This document shows positions 3,106-39,986 of a DNA stretch of 64,000 nucleotides, piece by piece. The stretch covers positions 1 to 64,000 of IMG/VR virus record IMGVR_UViG_3300042191_000299; one strand, written 5' to 3'. The notes under the pieces are model-generated. The model searched no databases, was not told the origin of the DNA, and saw only the letters and a program-made list of their open reading frames with translations. Source of the DNA: a virus. The translations under genes and the position numbers were made by a program. Positions within the stretch are counted from its first letter, which is position 1, and every line of letters begins with the position of its first letter.

Positions 3106-3846
3106 TCAGTAGCCGGCGTAGGGGTTCTGCCGAACGTTGCCCTGCGCGTCCGAATACTGCGTGACGCGACCACCGCAGATGGTGACGAACAGGCCGTCGC
3201 GGCGGGGTCCGATGCGCTCGCACTGCTCGTTCACTGGGGCGGGGATGAACGTCTGGATGAAGCGATGCGACCGGCGACGAGGAACGCCGAACACCGCGCC
3301 GAGGAATCCCTTGATGCCCGTGGCGAGGGGCGCCGCGGGAGTTGGAACGGCCACCACCACCGGCGTGACGGCGGGGGGAGCCGCCTCGGGAGCCAGCGGC
3401 GCCGTCTGGAATGGCATCGATCGCTGAATGCGCTGGCCGGCGTTACGCACGCCGTTGCGAATGTTCGAGCCGCTCGGCGACACGCCCGGGATCACGCCGG
3501 CTCGCATCACCATGTACGGGTCGACGTGCGAATGCCCCATCGGCATCGTTCCCCCGGTGGAGCCGAAGCCACCGAAGCCACTTCCCGCCACGCCACCGGC
3601 CTTGGGCACCACGGGGGCGACCGGCACGACGGGCGGCGCCGGCAGGGGTACCGCTGGCAGCTCGGACGGCCCCATATAGTTGTTGTAGGCTGGCCGATAC
3701 ATCCCCGCCGCGGACGTCATCGCGTGCGTCACCTGCGTGAGCGGGTGGAAGTGGGTGAAGAACCCCGAGTTCGGCAGCTTGGGTTGAAAATTCGGCGACG
3801 CGCCGGCGGGGCGCTGAAACGGTGTGCGCGTGGCTCCAAGAATCAT
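3106..3846 (-). CDS. Pro/Gly-rich hypothetical protein
   Basis: 246-aa ATG ORF. First gene of the minus-strand block that ends with the endolysin. Confidence 0.5.
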   Translation of the reverse strand: MILGATRTPFQRPAGASPNFQPKLPNSGFFTHFHPLTQVTHAMTSAAGMYRPAYNNYMGPSELPAVPLPAPPVVPVAPVVPKAGGVAGSGFGGFGSTGGTMPMGHSHVDPYMVMRAGVIPGVSPSGSNIRNGVRNAGQRIQRSMPFQTAPLAPEAAPPAVTPVVVAVPTPAAPLATGIKGFLGAVFGVPRRRSHRFIQTFIPAPVNEQCERIGPRRDGLFVTICGGRVTQYSDAQGNVRQNPYAGY

Positions 3847-3920
3847 GTGATCACCTCGTTAGAGAAAGAATAGGGCTAGACGAGGCACCGGGTCAAATGA
3901 GGGGGGATGACCCGCGTGAC

Positions 3921-4390
3921 GTCGCATCTTCTAAGCCGGTGCGCAGGCGCTGTGACTTTGTCCTTCGCGATAGCCCCGCCAAGCTCATGAATCACGTCGC
4001 GCCAACAAAGCCGGCGCGCAGGCTCTGTGACTCGACCACCGGAACCCTTCCGCGAGCGACGAGACGGTAGTCGCACCAACAAGGCCGATGCGCAGGCTTT
4101 TGAGACCGTAATCCCAGCCAGCAGCTCGTCGAGCGTCGGCGTGTCGCACCAACAAGGCCGATGCGCAGGCTTTTGAGACATGGTGCAACCATCATCCCGG
4201 CGTTGTGCTTGTGTCGCACCAACAAGGCCGATGCGCAGGCTTTTGAGACACAGACGCAGGAGTTCGACGCCTACTCGCAGGCGTCGCACCAACAAGGCCG
4301 ATGCGCAGGCTTTTGAGACTCTACTTTCTTCGCGACACCACCAACGACAGATGGTCGCACCAACAAGGCCGATGCGCAGGCTTTTGAGAC
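3921..4390 (-). CRISPR. CRISPR array 1: 7 units (5 identical 37-nt repeats plus 2 divergent 36-nt distal units), 6 spacers of 33-39 nt
   Basis: Repeat GTCGCACCAACAAGGCCGATGCGCAGGCTTTTGAGAC at 4070, 4143, 4213, 4283 and 4354. Divergent units at 3921 and 3996. Spacers at 3957-3995, 4032-4069, 4107-4142, 4180-4212, 4250-4282 and 4320-4353 are all unique. The degenerate end is distal to the effector gene. Confidence 0.93.
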
Positions 4391-4440
4391 CTACCCCATA
4401 AAAAGCCGCGTCTTATTCAGCTATTGAGTTGTCAATCGCG
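4391..4440 (-). promoter_or_regulatory. CRISPR leader (relatively AT-rich), homologous to the array-2 leader
   Basis: Minus strand reads ATTGACAACTCAATAGCTGAATAAGACGCGGCTTTTTATGGGGTAG. This is about 80% identical to 49527-49573 and lies in the same position relative to the first repeat. Confidence 0.65.
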
Positions 4441-4481
4441 CGAACCCCCCGAACGCCACCACCGTAGGCGGCGGCCAGCAC

Positions 4482-6170
4482 CTACGTTCGCGCGCCGTTC
4501 TTTGCACTCAGCGCCAGCAGATTGTTGCACGCGTTCAAATCTTGATCGCGTACACGCCCGCATGCAGCGCACGTGTGCATGAGCTGCGACTGATCCCATG
4601 TATCCTCACAGCCACATTCGTCGCAGCGCCGCGTGGTCATCGCCGGGTCGAGCTTGACGAATGTGCGCCCGAGCTTCCTGGCTGTGTCGATCAGGGCTAT
4701 CCGCAGTTCGTGCGGAGATCCCATCATCCGCCAGTATCGCTCGGCGTTCGGAACGGGTGCGTCTTCCGCCTTTGGCTTGGCCGCAAACTTGCGCAGGTCG
4801 AAGTCCTCCAGCACCAGCGTGTCGTACCGGGCAAGGAGCGTGCGCGCAAACATGCGGTAGAAATCCAGCCGGCGCGCGAGCGCCTTCTCACGCTGGTTGA
4901 TCGACCAGTCGCGGTAGTGCCAGAAACGCCGAACGCGCCACTCGTTGAGCGGCGAGAAGATCGCTTCGTCACCAGCGAACCGGTTGTCCTTCCACCACCA
5001 CACCGCTGATGACAGCCGTTTCGCGTTTCGCCACTGCGCCAGGTTCTCCAGACGCGCCGCGTGCTCGGGGGGCAGCGTGTTGGCCTTAGCCCAGGTGACC
5101 AGCTCGCCCCGCATCTTCTCGAACCAGTGGGTCTCCACACCTAACAACTGCGACGGGTAGTCCAGGGCGGACAGAAGCTCGTTGTCGAGTCGCACCTCCC
5201 CCTCGTTTCCCTTGTCGTCCTTCCAGTACGCCACGCGCAGGCCGCCGTTGCCCTTCTCGGCGACACGCCATCCGAGGTCGAGCGCCACACGGCCTTCGCC
5301 AGCAGCCACGGCTTGAGCAAACTCGCGGGACTCCACCGTGATGTGCAGTTCGTACGCCCAGGCGCGTCCGCGGCGCCAGCGGTACAGCCACGCCCACATG
5401 ATTTTCGCATCGTCCGGCAGCGGTCGATGGACGACAGCCGTGAACGTCACCCACAGCGGATCGCGTCCGACCGAACCGGCGCGGAGACTGCATTCAGCCA
5501 AATACTTGCCGCGCGACCGTCGCGTGCCGGGCAGCTCCCGCATACGAAAACGCCGGTCGCCCGCAAGCCGCGCCACGGTCATGCCCTTCTGGATCTGCAC
5601 AGCGATGCGCCCTTCGCCCGTGCGTGGCTTATGCCGAGGGTCCATCAGGGCCTTGCGCTGCTGCTCGGCTGCCTTCTCGCACACCAAATATGTGCCCCAG
5701 TACAGGTCCGACGCTGCGCGCTCTTCGATGATGCGCGCGTGGTGCCGCGCCTCAATTTCGTCCAGCCGTGCCTTGGTGGGGGGATCTGCTGCAGCTGCAG
5801 ATCGTTCCGCCTTCCAGGCTTTTCGCGCAACAGCGAGCTGCGCCTTGGCCTCTTTGATCGTCTGGCGCGTCTCGGCCGTCATCGTGCGCTTGCGTGCGGC
5901 TGCGTTGGCCTCGCGTGCTTGCTTGTATAGCGTCTCCACCGTCGCCTCTTCCCGGGCCACCCGCTGCCCTATCTCGATAACAGTAGGGGCCTCGTCGAGC
6001 ACGGCGCGAACGGCAGTGCGCCGCTCCAGCTCCAGCGTGACGAGCTTGGTGCGGTAGTCATCCGCCTTGCAATACTGATCGTCGGCGAGGGCTTGCCCTT
6101 CGGTGATGCCGCGGGGGTGGACACCGTAGACGTAGATGCGTGTAGGAACGGACGACGTTTTTCGCTTCAT
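4482..6170 (-). CDS. cas12: miniature type V CRISPR effector (TnpB/Cas12-like RuvC nuclease), 562 aa
   Basis: ATG 6170 overlaps the upstream stop (ATGA); the longer 605-aa listing adds a Pro/Arg-rich N-terminus. RuvC-I VALDLG (D298), RuvC-II LVLEDF (E455), zinc ribbon CDECGC..HTCAACG, RuvC-III RDQDLNACNN (D544). N-terminal strand IYVYGV plus a long helical insert. The array begins 91 nt downstream. Confidence 0.85.
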   Translation of the reverse strand: MKRKTSSVPTRIYVYGVHPRGITEGQALADDQYCKADDYRTKLVTLELERRTAVRAVLDEAPTVIEIGQRVAREEATVETLYKQAREANAAARKRTMTAETRQTIKEAKAQLAVARKAWKAERSAAAADPPTKARLDEIEARHHARIIEERAASDLYWGTYLVCEKAAEQQRKALMDPRHKPRTGEGRIAVQIQKGMTVARLAGDRRFRMRELPGTRRSRGKYLAECSLRAGSVGRDPLWVTFTAVVHRPLPDDAKIMWAWLYRWRRGRAWAYELHITVESREFAQAVAAGEGRVALDLGWRVAEKGNGGLRVAYWKDDKGNEGEVRLDNELLSALDYPSQLLGVETHWFEKMRGELVTWAKANTLPPEHAARLENLAQWRNAKRLSSAVWWWKDNRFAGDEAIFSPLNEWRVRRFWHYRDWSINQREKALARRLDFYRMFARTLLARYDTLVLEDFDLRKFAAKPKAEDAPVPNAERYWRMMGSPHELRIALIDTARKLGRTFVKLDPAMTTRRCDECGCEDTWDQSQLMHTCAACGRVRDQDLNACNNLLALSAKNGART

Positions 6171-6406
6171 TTGAGTACCTCGGTTAGAAGGGTCCGGAGC
6201 GCGTCCAGGCGCGCGGTTGGAAACTCCGTGACGCACTCGTTGCGTGAGATTTCGTGGTCTGTGCTGCACAGCCGTCGCAGCGACCGGAAGATGCGGCACG
6301 CGGCGACCTTCACTTGGTCACGCGTGCCGTGGCGCAGATCGTCCATGTCACCAGCGATCAACTCCTCGCGCACGCCGAGCTGGTCGAGCAGCTGCGCGAG
6401 CGTCAC
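6167..6406 (-). CDS. small helical protein, paralogue 3 of 3 (C-terminal LLTEVLK)
   Basis: 79 aa. ATGA overlaps at both ends. Shares its C-terminal motif with the two upstream ORFs. Confidence 0.6.
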   Translation of the reverse strand: MTLAQLLDQLGVREELIAGDMDDLRHGTRDQVKVAACRIFRSLRRLCSTDHEISRNECVTEFPTARLDALRTLLTEVLK

Positions 6407-6624
6407 TTGAGCACCTCAGCCAGAAGAGCCCGAGCGTCGTCGAGGCCCGGATGATCAACATCGCTGCGAAGCGTGGACAACTCCGCCGGCAACGGTTCAA
6501 GCAGGCGAGCAATCGTTTCGAACACCTTGCGCGTGCGCGGCCCCGCGCCGTGGGTGCACGAAATTCGCGCGGCTGCCAGCTCCTGGGGCGACACGTTGAC
6601 GTGGAGAAGAAGCGCCGCGTTCAT
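6403..6624 (-). CDS. small helical protein, paralogue 2 of 3 (C-terminal LLAEVLK)
   Basis: 73 aa. ATGA overlaps at both ends. Confidence 0.6.
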   Translation of the reverse strand: MNAALLLHVNVSPQELAAARISCTHGAGPRTRKVFETIARLLEPLPAELSTLRSDVDHPGLDDARALLAEVLK

Positions 6625-6866
6625 GAGGGCAGTACCTCCGCGATCAGTGCCGTGACGTCCGAAAACGCAGCGACTGCTGGTGCCGGATCCTCGCCGAAGT
6701 CAATCGCCCGCGCAAGCGCGTCGCGCCCCGCGGCCACGCGCTTGTCGATGACAGTGAGAACACGAAGTAAGCTGTCCCGCTGCTGGACGGGCGCGTCGGC
6801 GAGCAGGCGCCGCACGTGCTCAACGTCTCCTATGTGCACGTCGACTACCGTGTTGCCAGTGCTCAT
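6621..6866 (-). CDS. small helical protein, paralogue 1 of 3 (C-terminal LIAEVLPS)
   Basis: Internal ATG (MSTGNTVV) overlaps the RHH gene stop. 81 aa. Confidence 0.55.
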   Translation of the reverse strand: MSTGNTVVDVHIGDVEHVRRLLADAPVQQRDSLLRVLTVIDKRVAAGRDALARAIDFGEDPAPAVAAFSDVTALIAEVLPS

Positions 6867-7057
6867 TTCTTCACTGTCTTCTGCGTGGCGGCGGCGACAG
6901 CCTGGCGCACGAACCGGCTCAAGCTCTGGCCGCGCGCGGCCGCGTGCTGCTTCCACACCCCCCATTCGTAGTCGCCCACGCGCAGTGACCGCGGGGGCAT
7001 GGTTTCGGTGCCGGGGAGCAGCGCAACACGGAGAACGGGCAACGGCTTTTTTGGCAT
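6863..7057 (-). CDS. ribbon-helix-helix (CopG/Arc-like) DNA-binding protein
   Basis: 64 aa. Strand RSLRVGD followed by helices EWGVWKQHAAARG and SLSRFVRQAVAAA. First gene of the effector operon. Confidence 0.7.
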   Translation of the reverse strand: MPKKPLPVLRVALLPGTETMPPRSLRVGDYEWGVWKQHAAARGQSLSRFVRQAVAAATQKTVKK

Positions 7058-7066
7058 CAGTCGCGA

Positions 7067-7098
7067 ACACTACCACAGCAATACACGAGCGCAATACG
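7067..7098 (-). promoter_or_regulatory. candidate promoter/operator of the RHH-effector operon
   Basis: Minus strand reads TTGCGC-N16-TAGTGT, ending about 10 nt before ATG 7057 (near-leaderless). It overlaps two direct GTATTGC repeats, also found at 39234-39268. Confidence 0.45.
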
Positions 7099-7119
7099 CA
7101 AACCGACATACGCGCGCCT

Positions 7120-7350
7120 TCATTTCCGCCCCTTCACCGCGTCGATGAGCCCCGCGAGCGTGTTGCGCACCTGCCCCATCGCCATCGTGCTGGCCATGGT
7201 GGCGTAGGTGTACGCCCAGCCGATCAGGCAGGAAACGGAGCAAACCACAATGGCAACCGTCTGCACCCCTTGCGCGTTGACCCGTTGAACGGCGAAGTGC
7301 GCCCGCACGTGTTTGCGGCACTTCGCGCACGTGAGCGGCACAGCGGTCAT
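7120..7350 (-). CDS. hypothetical small protein with one hydrophobic segment
   Basis: Starts at MTAVPLTCAKC, overlapping the ThyX stop. 76 aa. Confidence 0.5.
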   Translation of the reverse strand: MTAVPLTCAKCRKHVRAHFAVQRVNAQGVQTVAIVVCSVSCLIGWAYTYATMASTMAMGQVRNTLAGLIDAVKGRK

Positions 7351-8216
7351 CCGGGCACGCTTTCGTTGGGCAGGGACATGCGGTAGGACCGCCACCCGGT
7401 GAGCTTGCCCACACGCTCGTCCGTCGCCAGCGCCTGCGCCACATGCTCCCCAGGTGCCGCGTGTGGCGGGTCCTGCACGATCAGTTTGTCGTGCAGCGCG
7501 ATGTCTTCGCGAATGTCACGCTTCCCGGCGTGTGTCAAGTAGCTCACACGTGCAGCTCGCCCGACGGCAATTTTGACGAGCAGCGCGTTGTGGGCGGCAC
7601 GCTCAGGCTCGCGGTGAATGCGCACACTCGGATCGATGAGCCCCCAGACGGCATTTCGATCCTCCGTCTCGATGAACGGCAGATGCCATTCGCCCGCCGC
7701 CAACTTCAGCGGCACCGATGCCTCCTTCGCGGCGCGCATCATCCGTGCGATCGTCTGGAAGTGTGGCTCTGCAGCCTTGTGACACCGGAGCGCCCACAGG
7801 TTGTTCCAGTCTGTTGCTGTGAAAATGACGGTGATCCACATCCACGGCTCAAGCAAACGATTCGTGACCTGCTTCGCAACTTCCAGCGCCATCATTCCTC
7901 GGGCGTGCTCCACGGCACTGTCACGGGCGCTCAGCCACATCTTGATGGCCTTTTCTCGCGCCTCCCCTGTCAGCTCCTCTTCGGCCTGCATGCCCTTCTG
8001 GGCCTTACCGATGTGGTCGGGGATGAACGGATCTTCCAGCACCCGCTGAATCATCTTCTCGATTGGGATCGCCCGCGAGCTGGCCGACGACCGCGATAAC
8101 GCACAGTGCGTGAGCAGCTCGGAATGGATGATCCGCGGATACGTGGCCACGATGGTGGTGATCCTCCTGCCGCTCGGGCCGATCGAGTCGGCAATTACTT
8201 TCGCTGAAAATGCCAT
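7347..8216 (-). CDS. thyX: ThyX-like FAD-dependent thymidylate synthase homologue
   Basis: Starts at MAFSAKV. HSELLTHCALSRSSASSRAIP resembles the ThyX RHRxxSxxxxSxR block, but HC replaces HR. Confidence 0.65.
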   Translation of the reverse strand: MAFSAKVIADSIGPSGRRITTIVATYPRIIHSELLTHCALSRSSASSRAIPIEKMIQRVLEDPFIPDHIGKAQKGMQAEEELTGEAREKAIKMWLSARDSAVEHARGMMALEVAKQVTNRLLEPWMWITVIFTATDWNNLWALRCHKAAEPHFQTIARMMRAAKEASVPLKLAAGEWHLPFIETEDRNAVWGLIDPSVRIHREPERAAHNALLVKIAVGRAARVSYLTHAGKRDIREDIALHDKLIVQDPPHAAPGEHVAQALATDERVGKLTGWRSYRMSLPNESVPG

Positions 8217-9725: not shown

Positions 9726-10751
9726 TTATCGATACATCTTGTGCATGCGGTGCTCGCGCTGCGCGTCGCCGGCACCGCCGGTGAAGCGTTGATGCGCCAC
9801 ACCCATCCGCGTGACTGGCCGGTTGACGAGCTGCTCGGCGGTGGCGCGTCTAGCCGCCTCGATAGTCCGATTGAGGTACCGCGCGCCGGTGGTGCGGTAC
9901 TTCATCAGCCCCACCGGCTGCGTCTCGTAGACCCAGTGGATCATTTCGTCAGGCACACCGGCACTGACAAGTGCGCACACCACTACCCAGTCGGCCTCGC
10001 TGCGCGTGACCTGGCGCTCGGAGTAGGCGTTCTTCTCCCCACTGTCGATGATGTCGATCACTCCCGGCGGGAGGCGCTGGCGCAGCTCCAGCCAATCCAC
10101 CGGCGGGTCCACCGGCACGGGGATCCCCTCCTGTGGCTGGCGCGCCGGCCCTGCCCCCAGTCGATCGAGCGCCAGATCGATCTGGTCGATGGTGTACGTA
10201 CGCTCCGGGTTGACCGACGTGAGGTAGCACCAGCTTGGCGGCGTCTTCCAGTTCACCGTGCCGGCGAGGCGCAAGATCCGGTTCACATTGAAAATGCAGT
10301 CCGAACCGGTGTACTTGCACAGCCGTTCCCAAACGACTTTCGCCTTCGTCGGGTCGGCCGGCTCGGACAGACGCAGATACATGTGCGCGCCATTTCCCGA
10401 TGAGCCAACGGCTGTCGGTGGAATGCCGCCTGCGGCCAGGCGCTTCTCCACCTCGCCGATGGACGTGCGCTCCGGCTGCAGGTCCAGCCCCACCGTCGAC
10501 ACGAATGGCACGTCGTGCTCGAAGCCGGTCATGGCTTTTCGTGGATTGACCGACACGAACGCGGAGAACCGCTCGGCGTTGATCTCCAAGGCGTATTCCG
10601 CCGCCACGTCCGCAGTGAAAAAGTAGCGCTTGATCGGCTTGCGCTTCGGTGCAAGCCCCGTGATCTCGATGAGCGTCGCGGCGGTAGGCACAGGGTGCAG
10701 CAGCTCGATGAGCGTGCGCGCGTGGTGCAGCTGCACTTCCGCTTGCGTCAC
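9726..10751 (-). CDS. DNA primase-like protein (plasmid/phage RepB-prime-like family, tentative)
   Basis: GTG overlaps the upstream stop. SSGNGAHMYLRL and NRILRLAGTVNWK motifs. C-terminal SRSEADWVVVCALVSAG helix bundle. Confidence 0.5.
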   Translation of the reverse strand: MTQAEVQLHHARTLIELLHPVPTAATLIEITGLAPKRKPIKRYFFTADVAAEYALEINAERFSAFVSVNPRKAMTGFEHDVPFVSTVGLDLQPERTSIGEVEKRLAAGGIPPTAVGSSGNGAHMYLRLSEPADPTKAKVVWERLCKYTGSDCIFNVNRILRLAGTVNWKTPPSWCYLTSVNPERTYTIDQIDLALDRLGAGPARQPQEGIPVPVDPPVDWLELRQRLPPGVIDIIDSGEKNAYSERQVTRSEADWVVVCALVSAGVPDEMIHWVYETQPVGLMKYRTTGARYLNRTIEAARRATAEQLVNRPVTRMGVAHQRFTGGAGDAQREHRMHKMYR

Positions 10752-11242
10752 GCCCACACCTCGATTGCTGTCGCGTAGCCAGGGCGACTCGGATGCTTCG
10801 GTGCGCCCGTGGCTGTCTTGCCGAGACACCACGCTACTTTTTTCGTCAGTACGACGAGTTGGCGGATGTGTTCAGCGCGGGCTGCAGTCAGTTTCGCCGG
10901 GCCTGAATCACCCCAGCCCACCATGACGACACTCGCTTCGTTGATGAGGCGCGCCAGGTGCGCGTCGTTTTCGGGCCCGATAGGATAATCCGTTGCTGCG
11001 AGCGCGGCAGGGTTCCTCGATCGAAGCGCAAACAGATTCGCCACTTCCAGCCAACCGTACTTCCACCGCTGCGTGAAGCCAATGCACTTGCGAATCGTCG
11101 CGTCGTCATCTACTGCGTCTGCCGTCGACGGGTTGAGCATGATCCACAGCACGAAGCCACGGGCAAACAGTGCTGGCTCCCACCGGCGGCGGAGCGTGTA
11201 GCGGTACGTGCCGCAGTTGCTAATAACAGCGCTGCGTTCCAT
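10748..11242 (-). CDS. DUF1643-like protein
   Basis: Starts at MERSAVISNCGTYRYTL. LWIMLNPSTAD is typical of DUF1643. Confidence 0.6.
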   Translation of the reverse strand: MERSAVISNCGTYRYTLRRRWEPALFARGFVLWIMLNPSTADAVDDDATIRKCIGFTQRWKYGWLEVANLFALRSRNPAALAATDYPIGPENDAHLARLINEASVVMVGWGDSGPAKLTAARAEHIRQLVVLTKKVAWCLGKTATGAPKHPSRPGYATAIEVWA

Positions 11243-13459: not shown

Positions 13460-13701
13460 GGCTGTCCGCCTTCCGCGACGCGCGCCCACACATCGCCGTG
13501 GCACGGCTTTGGTTTGCACCAGCATCCGAGGCGCTTGCCTTGAAGCGACGTGGCTTGTGCCAGCAGGTCGGGGCGGCTGCGCAGATGCGCGCGGAACAAA
13601 CGAATGGCCGCCGGGCCGCGAAACGGATTTCCGAACACAGACGGGCGCCCGATGTATACGTCGTACGGCTCGACGCGAATGTTGACCACACGGGTGCTCA
13701 C
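13456..13701 (-). CDS. DUF4326-like protein
   Basis: VVNIRVEPYDVYIGRPSVFGNPF...GCWCKPKPCHGDV pattern. GTG overlaps the polymerase stop. Confidence 0.6.
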   Translation of the reverse strand: MSTRVVNIRVEPYDVYIGRPSVFGNPFRGPAAIRLFRAHLRSRPDLLAQATSLQGKRLGCWCKPKPCHGDVWARVAEGGQP

Positions 13702-16157
13702 GACGCCTCCTTCCAATTCCCGGCCACCTTCGGATCTGCAGGAAACAGCATCGGCCCGATTCGCTTCGCCATCGCCTGCTGGATGATCCGCTTCATGTCT
13801 TCGGCCTCGTGCTGTGCACACTCGACGACGATCTGGTCGTGGCCGTTCACCACCAGACCGCGGTGGTTGGCATAGTCGAAGGGGTAGGCGGCCACCACGG
13901 CAGCGATGGCCGTGTTCTGCAGATCGGCGCTCGCGCCCTGGATAGGCAGGTTTCCCATTTCTGTGGCGCTCTCGCCGCCGATGAAAAAGCGCTTCCGCTT
14001 GTGAAACTGCGTGGCGATGTAGCCGACGCTGCGCCACCCACGGATGAGCATCTTCTTCCATTCGAGGATCGCCGGGTGCAGCTTCCACCACGCGCTGAAC
14101 GTGCGCTCCACCTCGGGCAGCGTGATGTGCGGGAACAGCGGCCGCAGGTTGTCGTCACGCAACAGGGACAGCGTCTGGAAGATGGTGGGCGGCTGGGCGT
14201 CGTAGTTGAGCGCGTACACGAACCGCTTGACGAAGTTTCGCACCTCGTCGTTCACGTCCTTCGGCTGGCAGCGAAACAGGCCACACGCATTGAAGATGTG
14301 GACGTCGGGGCCCCGCCCCTCGTCGAACGCCTGGAATGCCTGGATGAGCGGCTCGTCGCCCGCCAGCAGCGCGATCATCCTAAGTTCCACGGCACTCATG
14401 TCTGCTGCCACGAACACGTTGCCGAGCGCAGGAGTGAACATGGCGCGCAGACGCTTGGGGATGTTCTGCATGTTCGGCTCGTTCGATCCCCAGCGCCCCG
14501 ACGTCTTCCCCGGGCGCCACACCGCACGCAGCCGTCCGTCCGCGTGAACCGGCGGGCCCCCTACCAGCTTGCCGTTCTCCACGTGCCCGGTGTTCGTGCC
14601 GAGGATCTTCTCCGCTTCGCGGTAGCCGATGAGCCCGTGGATGATTCGCGTGGCGCGCTCGTCCAGGCCCAATCCCAGCAGGTCGAGCAGCGTGTTCTCG
14701 TCCGTCGATGCCTCACCGCTGTCCGTGTAGTGGTCATCCAGCATCGGTAGACCAAGATCCTCGTACAGCAGCTTGCGCACCTGCGGATAGGACCCCGGAT
14801 TGATGTCCCGCCCCGCCACCGCCTTGAATTCGGCCAGCAGGCGGTCGGACTTCTCCTGATACTCGACGGCAAACTCCAAGCGCTTGGCCTGGTCGACGCC
14901 GATGCCGATCGCGGACATCGACCGACCGATGCGAAACAGCTCCGCGTCGATCCCGTAGATGTGCGTCTGCTGCGCCCACGTGAGGTTCTGCTCGACGTAC
15001 GGCGCCGAGGTGTAGGTCACCGCAATGTCGTAGGACAGGTAGCGATCGAGGAGGGCATCATCGCGCACGTTGCTGTGCTTGAATGAATCCTTCCAGAATG
15101 GCGCATCCGTGTAGACGCTCCCGAGGAAGTCCAAGCGGTGCGGCAATTCCGACGTCACGCCAATCTGGTGCGCCACCAGCGTGTCGAACACCTTTTCGTC
15201 TACCAGCGGCATTCCATGCCGCCACAGCACCACCGAGTCGAACGCGATGCCGTTGTGTAGGTCGACGCGCGGTGCCCGCTGCAACCACCCCGCGATGGCG
15301 CGGCTCTGCGCCTGGATCTCATGCTCGGGCAGCATAAGGTGGCCCTTCACTGACAGGGGCGAATAGATCATGACCTCGGTGGCGTTGCCGATTCCAACGC
15401 GGCGCAGGCCACACGTCCAGGCGTCTTTGCCGTCGGTCTCCACGTCGACCGCCAGGCGATCCGGGTGGGCCACCAGGAAGTTCTCCACCTCAGCGGCACT
15501 CCTCGGTACAAAGTAGGCCGGGTCGCGCCACGTGTTGCCCCCACGGGAGATGCGCACGGCCTTGGTCACGTCGGCGTGGAAGATGGGGCGCATCGTCCGC
15601 CCCTCTTCGCGCATCACGAAGGCGGCGTGTGGAATCGGCACCGCCATCGGCCCGTTCGGGATCTGCAGGGGCGCCCCCCGCATCTTCATGATCGATGCGT
15701 TCACGCCCACCGCGGTCAAGCTCGCGCCGCCCATCAGTACGGCGAAGCGTGCTCGCTTCAGCTCGTTGAGCAGGCGAGGGCGGCAGCAGTCAATCACGCT
15801 GGGCAGTTTGCGGCGCTTCATCTCCTGCAGGTGCTTCTTCATCTCCGCCAGCGGAGCGCAGAGCGCAGCATTCGTGAATCCCACGCGACTCATGTCGGCG
15901 CCGGCGTTGCGTAGGGCTGTGCGGATCTCTCGGCCGCTGGCGCCGATGAGCGTTTCGCCCTTGTCGATCTCGTTGTGGCCAGGGGCCTCGGCCACCACCA
16001 GGACGTCGACGTTGTCCGGGATGGACGGCGGCACGGGGCCGCGCTGCGCGTTCCTCATAGAACACTGATCGCAGCGCGCCCCCTGCGCCATCGCCCAGGC
16101 GTGGTGCTCACCCGGGGGGCGACTGTCGATGTCGACGGTGTAGGCTTCAATCGTCAC
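13698..16157 (-). CDS. polA: family A DNA polymerase with 3'-5' exonuclease domain and N-terminal family-4 UDG-like domain
   Basis: UDG-like VLVVAEAPGHNE..GASG. Exo motif AVDVETDG. Pol motifs DMSAVELR, NLPIQGASAD and GHDQIVVEC. GTG start. Confidence 0.9.
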   Translation of the reverse strand: MTIEAYTVDIDSRPPGEHHAWAMAQGARCDQCSMRNAQRGPVPPSIPDNVDVLVVAEAPGHNEIDKGETLIGASGREIRTALRNAGADMSRVGFTNAALCAPLAEMKKHLQEMKRRKLPSVIDCCRPRLLNELKRARFAVLMGGASLTAVGVNASIMKMRGAPLQIPNGPMAVPIPHAAFVMREEGRTMRPIFHADVTKAVRISRGGNTWRDPAYFVPRSAAEVENFLVAHPDRLAVDVETDGKDAWTCGLRRVGIGNATEVMIYSPLSVKGHLMLPEHEIQAQSRAIAGWLQRAPRVDLHNGIAFDSVVLWRHGMPLVDEKVFDTLVAHQIGVTSELPHRLDFLGSVYTDAPFWKDSFKHSNVRDDALLDRYLSYDIAVTYTSAPYVEQNLTWAQQTHIYGIDAELFRIGRSMSAIGIGVDQAKRLEFAVEYQEKSDRLLAEFKAVAGRDINPGSYPQVRKLLYEDLGLPMLDDHYTDSGEASTDENTLLDLLGLGLDERATRIIHGLIGYREAEKILGTNTGHVENGKLVGGPPVHADGRLRAVWRPGKTSGRWGSNEPNMQNIPKRLRAMFTPALGNVFVAADMSAVELRMIALLAGDEPLIQAFQAFDEGRGPDVHIFNACGLFRCQPKDVNDEVRNFVKRFVYALNYDAQPPTIFQTLSLLRDDNLRPLFPHITLPEVERTFSAWWKLHPAILEWKKMLIRGWRSVGYIATQFHKRKRFFIGGESATEMGNLPIQGASADLQNTAIAAVVAAYPFDYANHRGLVVNGHDQIVVECAQHEAEDMKRIIQQAMAKRIGPMLFPADPKVAGNWKEAS

Positions 16158-37891: not shown

Positions 37892-38332
37892 TCACACTGG
37901 CGGGAACGGCGGCGCCTGCGGACACGGCACCAGCCAAGAATCGCCCGGCACGTCGATCGCGTGGGCGTGTAGCTGGACCCGCTTCACGTGAAGGGCGCGG
38001 AAGCACCGAGGGCCCTGCGCGGGCGGTTCGTCGACGTCGTGGAAGCGTACCGTGCCGGTGCTGCAGGTCCGGTAGTGCTTGGCGGCCTTGGCGTGCGCGG
38101 CCATCCACTCCTGGTGCGCCAGCGCGATTCTACCGGCGTGCAAGGCGGCGGCGTTGACGAGCAGGCGGTCGATTTCTGCCGCCGCCGCTGCTTTCGGGCT
38201 GCACTCGGCGACGCACCAGGCGCAGAGACCCTCGGCGACGCCGGAGCCAGTGCCGCTGCAGCCGGTGAGACGGCCGTGGTTGGGGCTAGAGCACTGGCAG
38301 GTGAAGTAGCGGTCCGCTGTACCGGCGGCCAT
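37892..38332 (-). CDS. Cys-rich hypothetical protein
   Basis: Starts at MAAGTADRYFTCQCSSPNHG, in a TGATG overlap with the upstream stop. Confidence 0.5.
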   Translation of the reverse strand: MAAGTADRYFTCQCSSPNHGRLTGCSGTGSGVAEGLCAWCVAECSPKAAAAAEIDRLLVNAAALHAGRIALAHQEWMAAHAKAAKHYRTCSTGTVRFHDVDEPPAQGPRCFRALHVKRVQLHAHAIDVPGDSWLVPCPQAPPFPPV

Positions 38333-38520
38333 CACTGCACCAGCCTCACCAGCACCTGCCGACCGTGCGTGATGACGTCGGCCGACCACGCCGGCGCAAT
38401 CCACACCCCTGCGGCGCAGGCGACGCCCAGCACGAACAGCACGCAGGCCACCGCGCCGAACAGACGGAGCACCAGGGCGAGCGTCAGCACGGCCACCAGC
38501 CCGACCAGCACGCCGATCAC
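38332..38520 (-). CDS. two-TM membrane peptide
   Basis: 62 aa. Almost entirely hydrophobic (IGVLVGLVAVLTLALVLRLFGAVACVLFVLGVACAAGVW). Confidence 0.55.
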   Translation of the reverse strand: MIGVLVGLVAVLTLALVLRLFGAVACVLFVLGVACAAGVWIAPAWSADVITHGRQVLVRLVQ

Positions 38521-38723
38521 GCGGCACCTCGCGTGGTCCAGCGCCCAAACAGCGGTGCGTGGAACAGGACCGAATTGTGCGCCTGCAAGCGGGCGTGCGA
38601 CCAGATCAGTAGCTCGCCCACCGTGACGGTGGACGGGCGCTTCTCCGGGTGCAGATCCAAGTAGTCGGCGAGTAGCTCGTCGAGCGCGTGGTGGAGGCTG
38701 TGGTTGCGATCGGCGCGGTTCAC
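38517..38723 (-). CDS. hypothetical small protein
   Basis: 68 aa. ATGA overlap. Confidence 0.5.
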   Translation of the reverse strand: MNRADRNHSLHHALDELLADYLDLHPEKRPSTVTVGELLIWSHARLQAHNSVLFHAPLFGRWTTRGAA

Positions 38724-38724
38724 G

Positions 38725-39186
38725 TTACGCCGCCTTCCTGAGCAGCTTCAACGACGCCCGGATGATCTCGTCGGCCGTGCCGTTCGAGCCCACGCGTGCC
38801 AGCACCGGCTCGATTTCGCCGTTCGTGTAACCGAGGTACTTCAATCCGCCGCGTGCATCCTTCACCGTGACCGGCTCCATGGTGCGAATGGGGATCACCT
38901 TGGCGTGTGGCGCGTGAACAATAGGGTGCTCTTCGCGGGCGGCCTTTCCTTGCTCGGAGGTGAACGTCCACCTGAAGAAGCGGATCCACAGCTGCAGCGG
39001 CACGATGCACAGCAGCCCGAAGGTGAACGCCGAGAGCGCCACCGCGGTGCAGCCGGTCTGGCCGAACAGCCACGTGGTGAACTTGGCGAGCAGCTCACCC
39101 ACGATGCCGGTGGTGGTGCCGAAGGCCAGAAAGAACGAGAAGGACAGGAGCGTGATACCGAGGAAGGGACGGAATTTGGTTTTCAT
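38725..39186 (-). CDS. membrane protein with RuvA-domain-III-like C-terminus (tentative)
   Basis: N-terminal TM segments. C-terminal GLKYLGYTNGEIEPVLARV..ADEIIRASLKLL. Conserved RBS AAGGAAAAACGCC. Confidence 0.55.
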   Translation of the reverse strand: MKTKFRPFLGITLLSFSFFLAFGTTTGIVGELLAKFTTWLFGQTGCTAVALSAFTFGLLCIVPLQLWIRFFRWTFTSEQGKAAREEHPIVHAPHAKVIPIRTMEPVTVKDARGGLKYLGYTNGEIEPVLARVGSNGTADEIIRASLKLLRKAA

Positions 39187-39233: not shown

Positions 39234-39287
39234 GCGCAATACTTGAGCGCAATACGTTATGTATTGCGTCAGTGTGGTGGTTTTGCG

Positions 39288-39292
<5 letters not shown>
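39234..39292. promoter_or_regulatory. cluster of short repeats: GCGCAATAC x2 direct plus 1 inverted; TTGCGTCAGT x2
   Basis: GCGCAATAC-TTGA-GCGCAATACG-TTAT-GTATTGCG at 39234-39268. TTGCGTCAGT at 39264 and 39283. GAGCGCAATACG is also present at 7087-7098. Confidence 0.55.

Positions 39293-39960
<668 letters not shown>

Positions 39961-39986
<26 letters not shown>

Follow-up and report, generated by a model that had tools for sequence, protein, structure and literature searches.

An RHH-headed Cas12m-CRISPR accessory cassette in a tailed-phage genome, with three lineage-specific small genes best explained as co-expressed cargo

What are three small genes doing between a presumed repressor gene and a single-effector CRISPR-Cas system on a phage genome? 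This question is raised by the viral record IMGVR_UViG_3300042191_000299, of which positions 1 to 64,000 were analysed (this whole stretch of 64 kb is referred to below as the window). Five genes are arranged in tandem on its minus strand, as judged from the sequence and its open reading frames (ORFs), and encode a 64-amino acid (aa) ribbon-helix-helix (RHH) protein, three small proteins designated here sA, sB and sC, and a Cas12m effector; they are followed by a CRISPR array. An earlier note, which was made from the letters of this DNA, had proposed that the three small proteins between the RHH protein and the effector are tandem paralogues forming an accessory triplet of a type V effector, a central claim that is mostly not borne out by the present analysis. 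In our best explanation, to which we assign a probability of about 55%, the locus is a discrete RHH-headed Cas12m-CRISPR accessory cassette, in which sA, sB and sC would be co-expressed, lineage-specific cargo.

The existence of the four small ORFs ahead of the effector, at the coordinates collected in Table 1, was confirmed by independent gene predictions. The identical five genes are predicted by the JGI and Logan gene callers on a contig identical to the window, and the codon-position GC content of each small ORF (GC1 high, GC2 low, GC3 high) agrees with that of bona fide genes of the window. The start of cas12m at position 6170 is supported by the N-termini of its homologues (MKRKTSSVPTR here vs MKRKTTSTPTR). 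All four junctions between the five genes are overlaps of 4 nucleotides (nt); the ATGA overlap that had been described for every junction holds for three of them, whereas the sB/sC junction is GTGA because sC begins with GTG. Gene order and overlaps agree with a co-directional, translationally coupled unit in which the RHH gene comes first and the type V effector last, as the earlier note had described it. It should be noted that 4-nt overlaps are found at 8 of 14 junctions in the neighbourhood of the cassette and are thus usual in this phage, so that the run of overlaps is not special. The second contig with this locus (L009) is 100% identical to the window, and hence no dN/dS ratio of nonsynonymous to synonymous changes is computable. 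No Rfam families were identified within positions 3500-7600.

That these genes form one unit is suggested by comparison with IMGVR_UViG_3300049215_000496 (L085), the only syntenic relative that reaches the site, whose PolA, helicase and ThyX proteins demonstrate 70%, 61% and 58% identity, respectively, to those of the window. Synteny extends from g568 through polA, helicase, tmk, thyX and g76, after which the L085 genome continues directly with g246 and g181. In the region examined of L085 (18449-19586), the distance between g76 and g246 is about 170 nt, versus 3.27 kb in the window, and the whole block from the RHH gene to the CRISPR array is missing, which points to a single indel, that is, an accessory cassette. 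The junction of about 170 nt in L085 holds at most a 36-aa hydrophobic ORF, a promoter-like TTGACC hexamer before g246 is present in both genomes, and a short stretch at the left edge (ATGTCGGTTTGCGTATTGC) has a counterpart in L085 (p about 0.009). By this comparison of sequences, RHH-sA-sB-sC-cas12m-CRISPR makes up a discrete accessory cassette that extends over about 3.2 kb, from about 7090 to 3915 on the minus strand of a tailed-phage genome. No direct repeats flank the cassette, and the g76/g246 junction may be an insertion hotspot. Among other candidate relatives, a second one (L093) stops 2.4 kb before the insertion site would be reached, none of 42 other ThyX loci is syntenic, a PolA scan of one metagenome found no more phage relatives, and a megablast search of the window against known phages gave no match.

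We further compared Cas12m-family loci from 49 IMG/VR contigs, 26 GTDB genomes, the GenBank phage Rctr197k and the contigs of the closest effector clusters, about 80 loci altogether; from the closest clusters, seven at 48-53% identity to the effector were included (11 contigs), of which five have sufficient sequence upstream of the effector for a judgement. The tblastn searches with the RHH protein, sA, sB and sC against the 49 viral loci, the 26 genome loci and the 11 closest-cluster contigs recovered only the identical copy in L009, so that none of the roughly 80 other loci carries any of the four ORFs. Clustering of the ORFs located within 1.8 kb upstream of the effectors revealed no family common to different elements, and a Pfam search with 91 ORFs upstream of effectors found no recurrent family. 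Instead, the upstream neighbours are diverse, including terminase, portal, deaminase and macro-domain genes. Upstream of the closest relatives of the effector, too, small co-directional ORFs stand in a row and often overlap the cas12m start, with the ORFs being mutually unrelated. The earlier note had named a consistent lack of co-occurrence with effector homologues as an outcome that would speak against its proposal, and in the available data no other effector homologue is accompanied by any of these ORFs. As sA, sB and sC recur in none of the other loci, Cas12m systems do not include them as conserved components; of the roles that had been considered for them, unrelated cargo is the best fit to the conservation data.

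Beyond the Cas12m loci, an exhaustive hidden Markov model (HMM) search with a profile of sB and sC in 1.84 billion representative proteins retrieved nothing but sB and sC themselves and three long repetitive proteins. For sA, a word-indexed search against 5.8 billion sequences, which is less sensitive (8 candidates scored), returned only the self match. The RHH protein, sA and sB are singleton clusters in the word-indexed collection by exact look-up. The three small proteins have no family match in Pfam, PHROGs, NCBIfam or PADLOC, and no further paralogue of them was found in the 64-kb window. By their sequences, sA, sB and sC are real, lineage-specific orphan proteins and not conserved Cas12m machinery. 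A tblastn match of sB in another locus (L104; E = 0.004) was dismissed as a chance hit, being antisense to a real gene. As a separate observation, a hydrophobic peptide of about 41 aa (…VLVLGL(A/S)ES…) is encoded directly upstream of cas12m in two of the closest relatives (L003, 4022-4150; L004, 129-254); the window has no counterpart of it.

An independent locus demonstrates a similar design lacking the small ORFs. On the contig JBBRQC010000020.1 of a Gemmatimonadales metagenome-assembled genome (L012, positions 3776-6100), a promoter, an RHH gene, a cas12m gene and a CRISPR array follow each other with no small ORFs between them. The promoter sequence TTGACA-N17-TATACA terminates 7 nt upstream of the start codon (ATG) of an RHH gene whose product is unrelated to that of the window (DUF6290, 28.9 bits against a cutoff of 27), the RHH stop codon overlaps the start of the Cas12m-family gene (GTGA), the effector has 33% identity to that of the window, and a five-repeat CRISPR array comes after it. 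By analogy, L012 would be the same design minus sA, sB and sC, which strengthens both the proposed start site and the reading of the RHH protein as a regulator. The unit in L012 also indicates that the three small proteins are dispensable for an RHH-Cas12m-CRISPR unit.

The effector itself is, by sequence, a Cas12m protein of type V-M. It matches the Cas12m structure 23vw_A in the PDB (E = 6e-66 over residues 23-560), Cas12m2 (E about 1e-23) and the PADLOC family Cas12u1 (E = 2.6e-87), with an additional match to the Pfam family Cas12f1-like_TNB, and its RuvC residues D298, E455 and D544 (a D-E-D triad) are invariant in an alignment of 21 family members. The array begins about 90 nt downstream of cas12m and contains repeats of about 36-37 nt, five of them conserved (GTCTCAAAAGCCTGCGCATCGGCCTTGTTGGTGCGAC) and two degenerate at the distal end, that are separated by six spacers of 33-39 nt each. 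No cas1, cas2 or cas4 is present in the gene table for the 10 kb upstream, and the two downstream genes have no Pfam matches. The sequence of the effector, the adjacent array and this lack of adaptation genes are those of an ordinary type V-M locus. Variants of Cas12m with a D-E-D triad have been reported not to cleave double-stranded DNA, and the characterised Cas12m enzymes function with CRISPR RNA (crRNA) alone (PMC11013384). Cas12m with its crRNAs presumably silences target DNA by binding here too, as is known for the family. Searches for spacer targets in the window, the GenBank phage collection and about 130 fetched loci identified none; the best spacer match (E = 0.04, to Sulfitobacter phages) spans a repeat/spacer boundary and was not taken as a target. 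Phage-borne Cas12m is common: effectors of this family are encoded on 49 IMG/VR contigs, several of them longer than 100 kb, and IMGVR_UViG_3300032770_000005 carries two effector copies (L069 and L084, among the viral loci L036-L084). This is contrary to a preprint that calls the 610-aa Cas12m of myxophage MV-1 the first phage example (bioRxiv 10.64898/2026.09.14.751636).

How are the three small proteins related to each other? The proposed paralogy stands for sB and sC, which align end to end with 32% identity and score z = 5.7-6.1 in Smith-Waterman and end-free global alignments, a score reached by 0 of 2000 shuffled sequences; a weak signal persists when the last 10 residues are removed (p = 0.025). 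From these alignments we conclude that sB and sC are paralogues that arose by duplication. It fails for sA, which is not significantly similar to either sB (p = 0.14) or sC (p = 0.46) in shuffle tests, yields no BLASTP alignment with them and has an hhalign probability of 1.6%; only its last 13 or so residues align with sB and sC. These residues include the C-terminal motif that had been taken as a sign of tandem duplication, (A/T)L(L/I)(A/T)EVL(K/P). The motif is real: a six-frame translation of the 64 kb contains the pattern [AT]L[LI][AT]EVL at exactly three places, the C-termini of sA (in the form ...ALIAEVL), sB and sC. As a proof of duplication it falls short, because the codons of its E-V-L core, GAGGTRCT, coincide with the Shine-Dalgarno sequence of the next overlapping gene, 5-9 nt before its start codon. 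The ribosome-binding sites of this phage are of the GGAGG/GAGG type, and an unrelated DUF1643 gene (end at 10748-10770, minus strand) closes with ...AIEVWA, where the GAGGT codons form the Shine-Dalgarno sequence of the next overlapping gene. Since the motif is partly set by the Shine-Dalgarno sequence, it is no proof of common descent, although the Shine-Dalgarno sequence does not account for the flanking (A/T)L(L/I)(A/T) residues.

All three proteins had also been described as helical, which agrees with the AlphaFold2 (AF2) model of sA, a bundle of three helices predicted from the single sequence with a predicted local distance difference test (pLDDT) score of 83.8. The description is less secure for sB, whose model, built from the sB/sC alignment, is helical with a low pLDDT of 55 and is too poor for a fold search. 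With the sA model as the query, Foldseek found nothing better than E = 2 in PDB and BFVD, although such a search has little power for a helical bundle of 81 aa. The matches were generic helical bundles (E > 2), among which a match to AcrIIC4 with E = 9.9 is meaningless.

The identity of the first gene product was correctly recognized in the earlier note. In a profile search, the 64-aa protein matches PHROG 6506 'Arc-like repressor' with E = 5.6e-8, and distant tblastn matches were found to RHH/Arc-like genes of Gordonia phages; the G-x-S turn between the RHH helices is readable in the sequence (GQSLSRFVRQAV). The Pfam RHH_1 score of 14.4 bits is below the threshold of 20.5, so that the assignment comes from the phage-specific PHROG profile and not from Pfam. 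The scores for RHH antitoxin families are below threshold as well: RelB 15.8 bits (cutoff 50), TacA 13.6 (21) and DUF6290 14.9 (27). Given the Arc-like match, the operator-like repeats described below and the RHH-cas12m unit of L012, we regard this protein as the likely regulator of the cassette and its likely autorepressor.

The gap of 62 nt upstream of the RHH gene contains the direct repeats that had been pointed out there, namely two copies of the heptad GTATTGC, 13 nt apart, with degenerate copies 14 nt upstream and 11 nt downstream. This heptad is enriched in the window as a whole (11 copies against 3.65 expected; 0 of 100 shuffles reach 11). A longer, 20-nt motif containing it (GTATTGCGCTCNNGTATTGC) has exactly two copies in the 64 kb against 0.06 expected, both located in minus-strand intergenic regions ahead of operons. 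The phased heptads and the duplicated 20-nt motif could be operator subsites of an RHH repressor, with binding of the RHH protein to them being putative. The upstream repeats look operator-like, and the autoregulation that had been suggested on their account is plausible. No notable RNA fold was detected in the 62-nt gap (z = +1.1). The RHH gene has no Shine-Dalgarno sequence, and a -10-like hexamer ends nine nt before its ATG, a geometry of leaderless mRNA that favours a transcription start there; the RHH mRNA would then be near-leaderless, starting just before the ATG.

The second copy of the 20-nt motif is combined with an inverted heptad in the arrangement GCAATAC-N5-GTATTGC, and a possible promoter, TTGCGC-N18-TATAAC, overlaps the motif. 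The first product of the three-gene operon behind it is a 153-aa protein that carries transmembrane segments at its N-terminus and a RuvA_C domain (Pfam, E = 4.6e-7), and a tblastn search of the fetched loci gave nothing related to it. Separately, on the contig of P0003 (ENA ERZ1426817), a close relative of the effector with 51% identity, a 142-aa protein with a weak RuvA_C match is encoded about 650 nt downstream of cas12m.

Table 1. Coordinates of the cassette, its putative control region and the second motif site in the window (aa, amino acids; pI, isoelectric point)
Feature	Position	Strand	Remarks
RHH (Arc-like) gene	6863..7057	-	64 aa, pI 11.4; first gene of the cassette
sA	6621..6866	-	81 aa, pI 4.9; coding signal; orphan; three helices predicted
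sB	6403..6624	-	73 aa; orphan; paralogue of sC
sC	6167..6406	-	79 aa; GTG start; orphan; paralogue of sB; stop overlaps cas12m start (ATGA)
cas12m effector	4482..6170	-	562 aa; type V-M, formerly V-U1
CRISPR leader	4391..4481	-	relatively AT-rich; perfect TTGACA hexamer; putative promoter
CRISPR array	3921..4390	-	7 repeats, 6 spacers
Putative promoter/operator	7067..7111	-	four phased heptads with proposed -35 and -10
Heptad GTATGTC	7111-7105	-	degenerate
Heptad GTATTGC	7097-7091	-	
Heptad GTATTGC	7084-7078	-	
Heptad GTAGTGT	7073-7067	-	degenerate
Proposed -35, TTGCGC	7094-7089	-	
Proposed -10, TAGTGT	7072-7067	-	ends nine nt before the RHH ATG
Second copy of the 20-nt motif, GTATTGCGCTCAAGTATTGC	39236..39255	-	with inverted heptad GCAATAC at 39267-39261
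Operon behind the second motif copy	39186..38725, 38723..38517, 38520..38332	-	three genes

Two further features of the genome were observed. The polA gene (13698-16058, minus strand) encodes a phage PolA with an N-terminal domain of the uracil-DNA glycosylase family (Pfam UDG and DNA_pol_A) and lies in a replication module together with helicase, DUF1643, thymidylate kinase and ThyX genes. A 232-aa ORF at 39288-39986 (minus strand) contains a long low-complexity stretch rich in Ala, Tyr and Asp (AAAYAAD-like repeats) and has no family match, with other frames and the other strand of the same segment being read as poly-Arg and poly-Gly/Val ORFs.

In the mechanism that we propose for the cassette, transcription would start a few nt before the ATG of the RHH gene and give a near-leaderless mRNA, to which read-through from thyX-g76 may add. 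Ribosomes would then move from gene to gene via the 4-nt stop/start overlaps; the Shine-Dalgarno sequence GAGGT for sB, sC and cas12m sits in the last codons of each preceding gene, which would give the three small proteins their shared ...EVL C-termini. As the RHH protein accumulates, it would bind the phased GTATTGC heptads over the -35 and the spacer and switch the cassette off, as Arc does at the Pant promoter of phage P22, and it probably also represses the second operon that bears the same 20-nt motif. The small proteins sA, sB and sC, released in the same early pulse as Cas12m, would most likely be small binding proteins used in phage-host or phage-phage conflict, for example in anti-defence or host take-over. 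This estimate of their role is drawn from their location in an accessory cassette, behind a small repressor and beside a weapon used between mobile genetic elements.

Several observations weigh against the accessory-cassette explanation. The indel is drawn from one relative at about 60% protein identity, and stepwise assembly or a loss from the relative could explain the difference as well. The promoter that had been proposed upstream of the RHH gene, TTGCGC-N16-TAGTGT, is present in the letters of the window but is weak, agreeing with the sigma-70 consensus in just 6 of its 12 positions, and the promoter scan reported neither of the two motif sites; the factor that binds the heptads could be a protein other than the RHH protein. 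The shared C-terminal motif, at 7 residues, is longer than the Shine-Dalgarno sequence needs and hints that sA may have a function or an origin in common with sB and sC. The exhaustive search covered only sB and sC, with sA being searched by word index. Finally, orphan status is compatible with a Cas12m-specific role, as fast-evolving modulators such as anti-CRISPR (Acr) proteins are typically orphans.

The alternative that survives best, though we still consider it unlikely, is an anti-defence operon of the acr-aca type, in which sA, sB and sC inhibit host immunity, the RHH protein damps a strong early promoter in the manner of an anti-CRISPR-associated (Aca) regulator, and the cas12m-CRISPR part is a co-regulated module for counter-defence or competition. 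Such an operon would suit small, partly acidic, helical orphans that are encoded beside a small repressor gene within an accessory cassette, and the presence of the operator-like motif at a second operon mirrors Aca14, an RHH-type Aca protein described as a repressor of both its own operon and an anti-defence operon nearby, with a link to a co-opted cas gene (PMC13551039). By analogy, Aca14 makes the 'Aca-like RHH' idea of the earlier note respectable. The fit is poorer at the level of families and gene order. None of the annotated families in Pfam, PHROGs, NCBIfam or PADLOC was matched, so that no known acr gene is recognized in the operon, and sA has no structural match, although Foldseek is weak for so small a helical bundle. 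Whereas the described aca genes, including aca14, come after the acr genes, the RHH gene leads its operon. Direct repeats are found over the -35 and the spacer, in place of the inverted repeats reported for Aca14 and of the inverted-repeat operator over the -10 that would be expected of such a regulator; an inverted copy of the heptad is found only at the second site.

A bolder extension of the proposed mechanism, which we hold to be somewhat less probable than the acr-aca operon, is a self-contained, self-limiting conflict module. In this extension, the RHH protein would release the Cas12m-crRNA silencer and the small proteins, which would be fast-evolving, in one early pulse, the shared C-terminal helix would dock the small proteins on Cas12m or on a defence protein of the host or of a rival phage, and the same repressor would control the distant operon. 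If this were true and the partner were Cas12m, the small proteins would be the first protein modulators of a type V-M effector; if the partner were a defence protein of the host or of a rival phage, they would be new anti-defence proteins.

It is improbable that sA, sB and sC are dedicated Cas12m modulators, that is, cofactors, chaperones or timed inhibitors that attach to Cas12m or to its complex with crRNA, with translational coupling setting the stoichiometry and the C-terminal helix serving for docking. They do belong to the same inserted cassette as cas12m and are coupled directly to its start codon, and their C-terminal motif is unique to these three proteins in the 64 kb. On the other side, no homologue accompanies the effector in the roughly 80 other Cas12m-family loci compared, including seven of the closest clusters (five of which could be judged upstream), no gene family recurs upstream of these effectors, L012 combines an RHH gene, cas12m and an array without small ORFs, the characterised Cas12m works with crRNA alone (PMC11013384), and the motif is partly explained by the Shine-Dalgarno sequence.

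Even less probable is that the small ORFs do not encode functional proteins and are only open frames in a long 5' leader that carries ribosomes and Shine-Dalgarno sites to cas12m. Their orphan status and the coincidence of the conserved C-terminal part with the ribosome-binding sites would agree with such a leader; it is opposed by the codon-position GC of real genes in all three ORFs, by the full-length protein similarity that sB and sC have kept after duplication, by the confident in silico fold of sA from a single sequence and by the agreement of two independent gene callers. A type II toxin-antitoxin pair, with the RHH protein as an antitoxin and the next gene or genes encoding a toxin for abortive exclusion or for stabilisation of the cassette, is scarcely credible, since the RHH-first order typical of many such pairs and the weak profile matches to DUF6290, TacA and RelB are outweighed by antitoxin scores of 13.6-15.8 bits that lie far under the cutoffs of 21-50, by the Arc-like repressor family as the best match, by the lack of any toxin family match for sA, sB and sC, and by the comparable RHH gene of L012 being followed directly by cas12m.

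If the accessory-cassette model is true, this locus would illustrate in detail how a minimal CRISPR-Cas system is packaged and regulated by a phage. An RHH autorepressor with a near-leaderless start would head at least two independent Cas12m cassettes, with a concrete putative operator sequence given here, and Cas12m, a silencer and not a cutter, would be under tight control of dosage or timing on mobile elements. For annotation, sA, sB and sC should not be described as Cas12m accessory proteins, and their shared C-terminal motif should not be read as common descent; because of their location, they are reasonable candidates for anti-defence proteins. Not found in the literature searched was the combination of a dedicated RHH gene heading a cas12m-CRISPR cassette, seen twice here, with three orphan genes between the regulator and the effector, seen in this phage only.

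One of the closest known systems is the immI region of phage P22, where the Pant-arc-ant operon is controlled by the RHH repressor Arc through a 21-bp operator, and where a second repressor, Mnt, is encoded. Similar to arc, a small RHH gene of the Arc family stands first in a phage accessory operon, and its product is predicted to bind repeated subsites over its own promoter, which would allow an early pulse of downstream expression followed by shut-off. The relatedness to Arc is at the profile level only, and binding and repression by the RHH protein are predictions here. The two systems also differ in the operator, with direct GTATTGC heptads about 13 bp apart in place of the 21-bp Arc operator, and in the downstream genes, which are orphans and a CRISPR-Cas system in the window versus an antirepressor in P22; no second repressor similar to Mnt was identified in the window.

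With Aca14 (WP_005725436.1), the cassette shares the use of an RHH and not a helix-turn-helix regulator in a conflict operon of a phage or mobile element, a motif (in the window a putative binding site) that overlaps promoter elements of its own and of a second operon, and a link to a cas gene that a mobile element has co-opted. In its mode of action, the RHH-first operon would resemble an inverted acr-aca operon as well as P22 arc-ant. Its RHH gene heads the operon, while the regulator gene of the Aca14 system closes it; the repeats of the window are direct and those of Aca14 inverted; no known acr gene was recognized in the operon by the family searches; and its cas gene is a complete effector with an array and not csx20. 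Compared with the type V-M loci of MmCas12m and GoCas12m (PMC10442227, PMC11013384), the locus has a clear family effector that is compact (562 aa) and carries the D-E-D RuvC triad found in some cleavage-deficient Cas12m proteins, an adjacent array with repeats of about 36 nt, and no adaptation genes. It differs from them in being phage-borne and in having a coupled operon of five genes, with an RHH gene and three orphans, instead of an effector and an array only. The viral minimal CRISPR-Cas systems, such as CasΦ/Cas12j of huge phages and the Cas12m of MV-1, have been described with no dedicated regulator or co-transcribed small genes, unlike the cassette of the window. What they have in common with it is a single compact type V effector accompanied by a short array, with no cas1, cas2 or cas4, and a presumed use against competing mobile elements.

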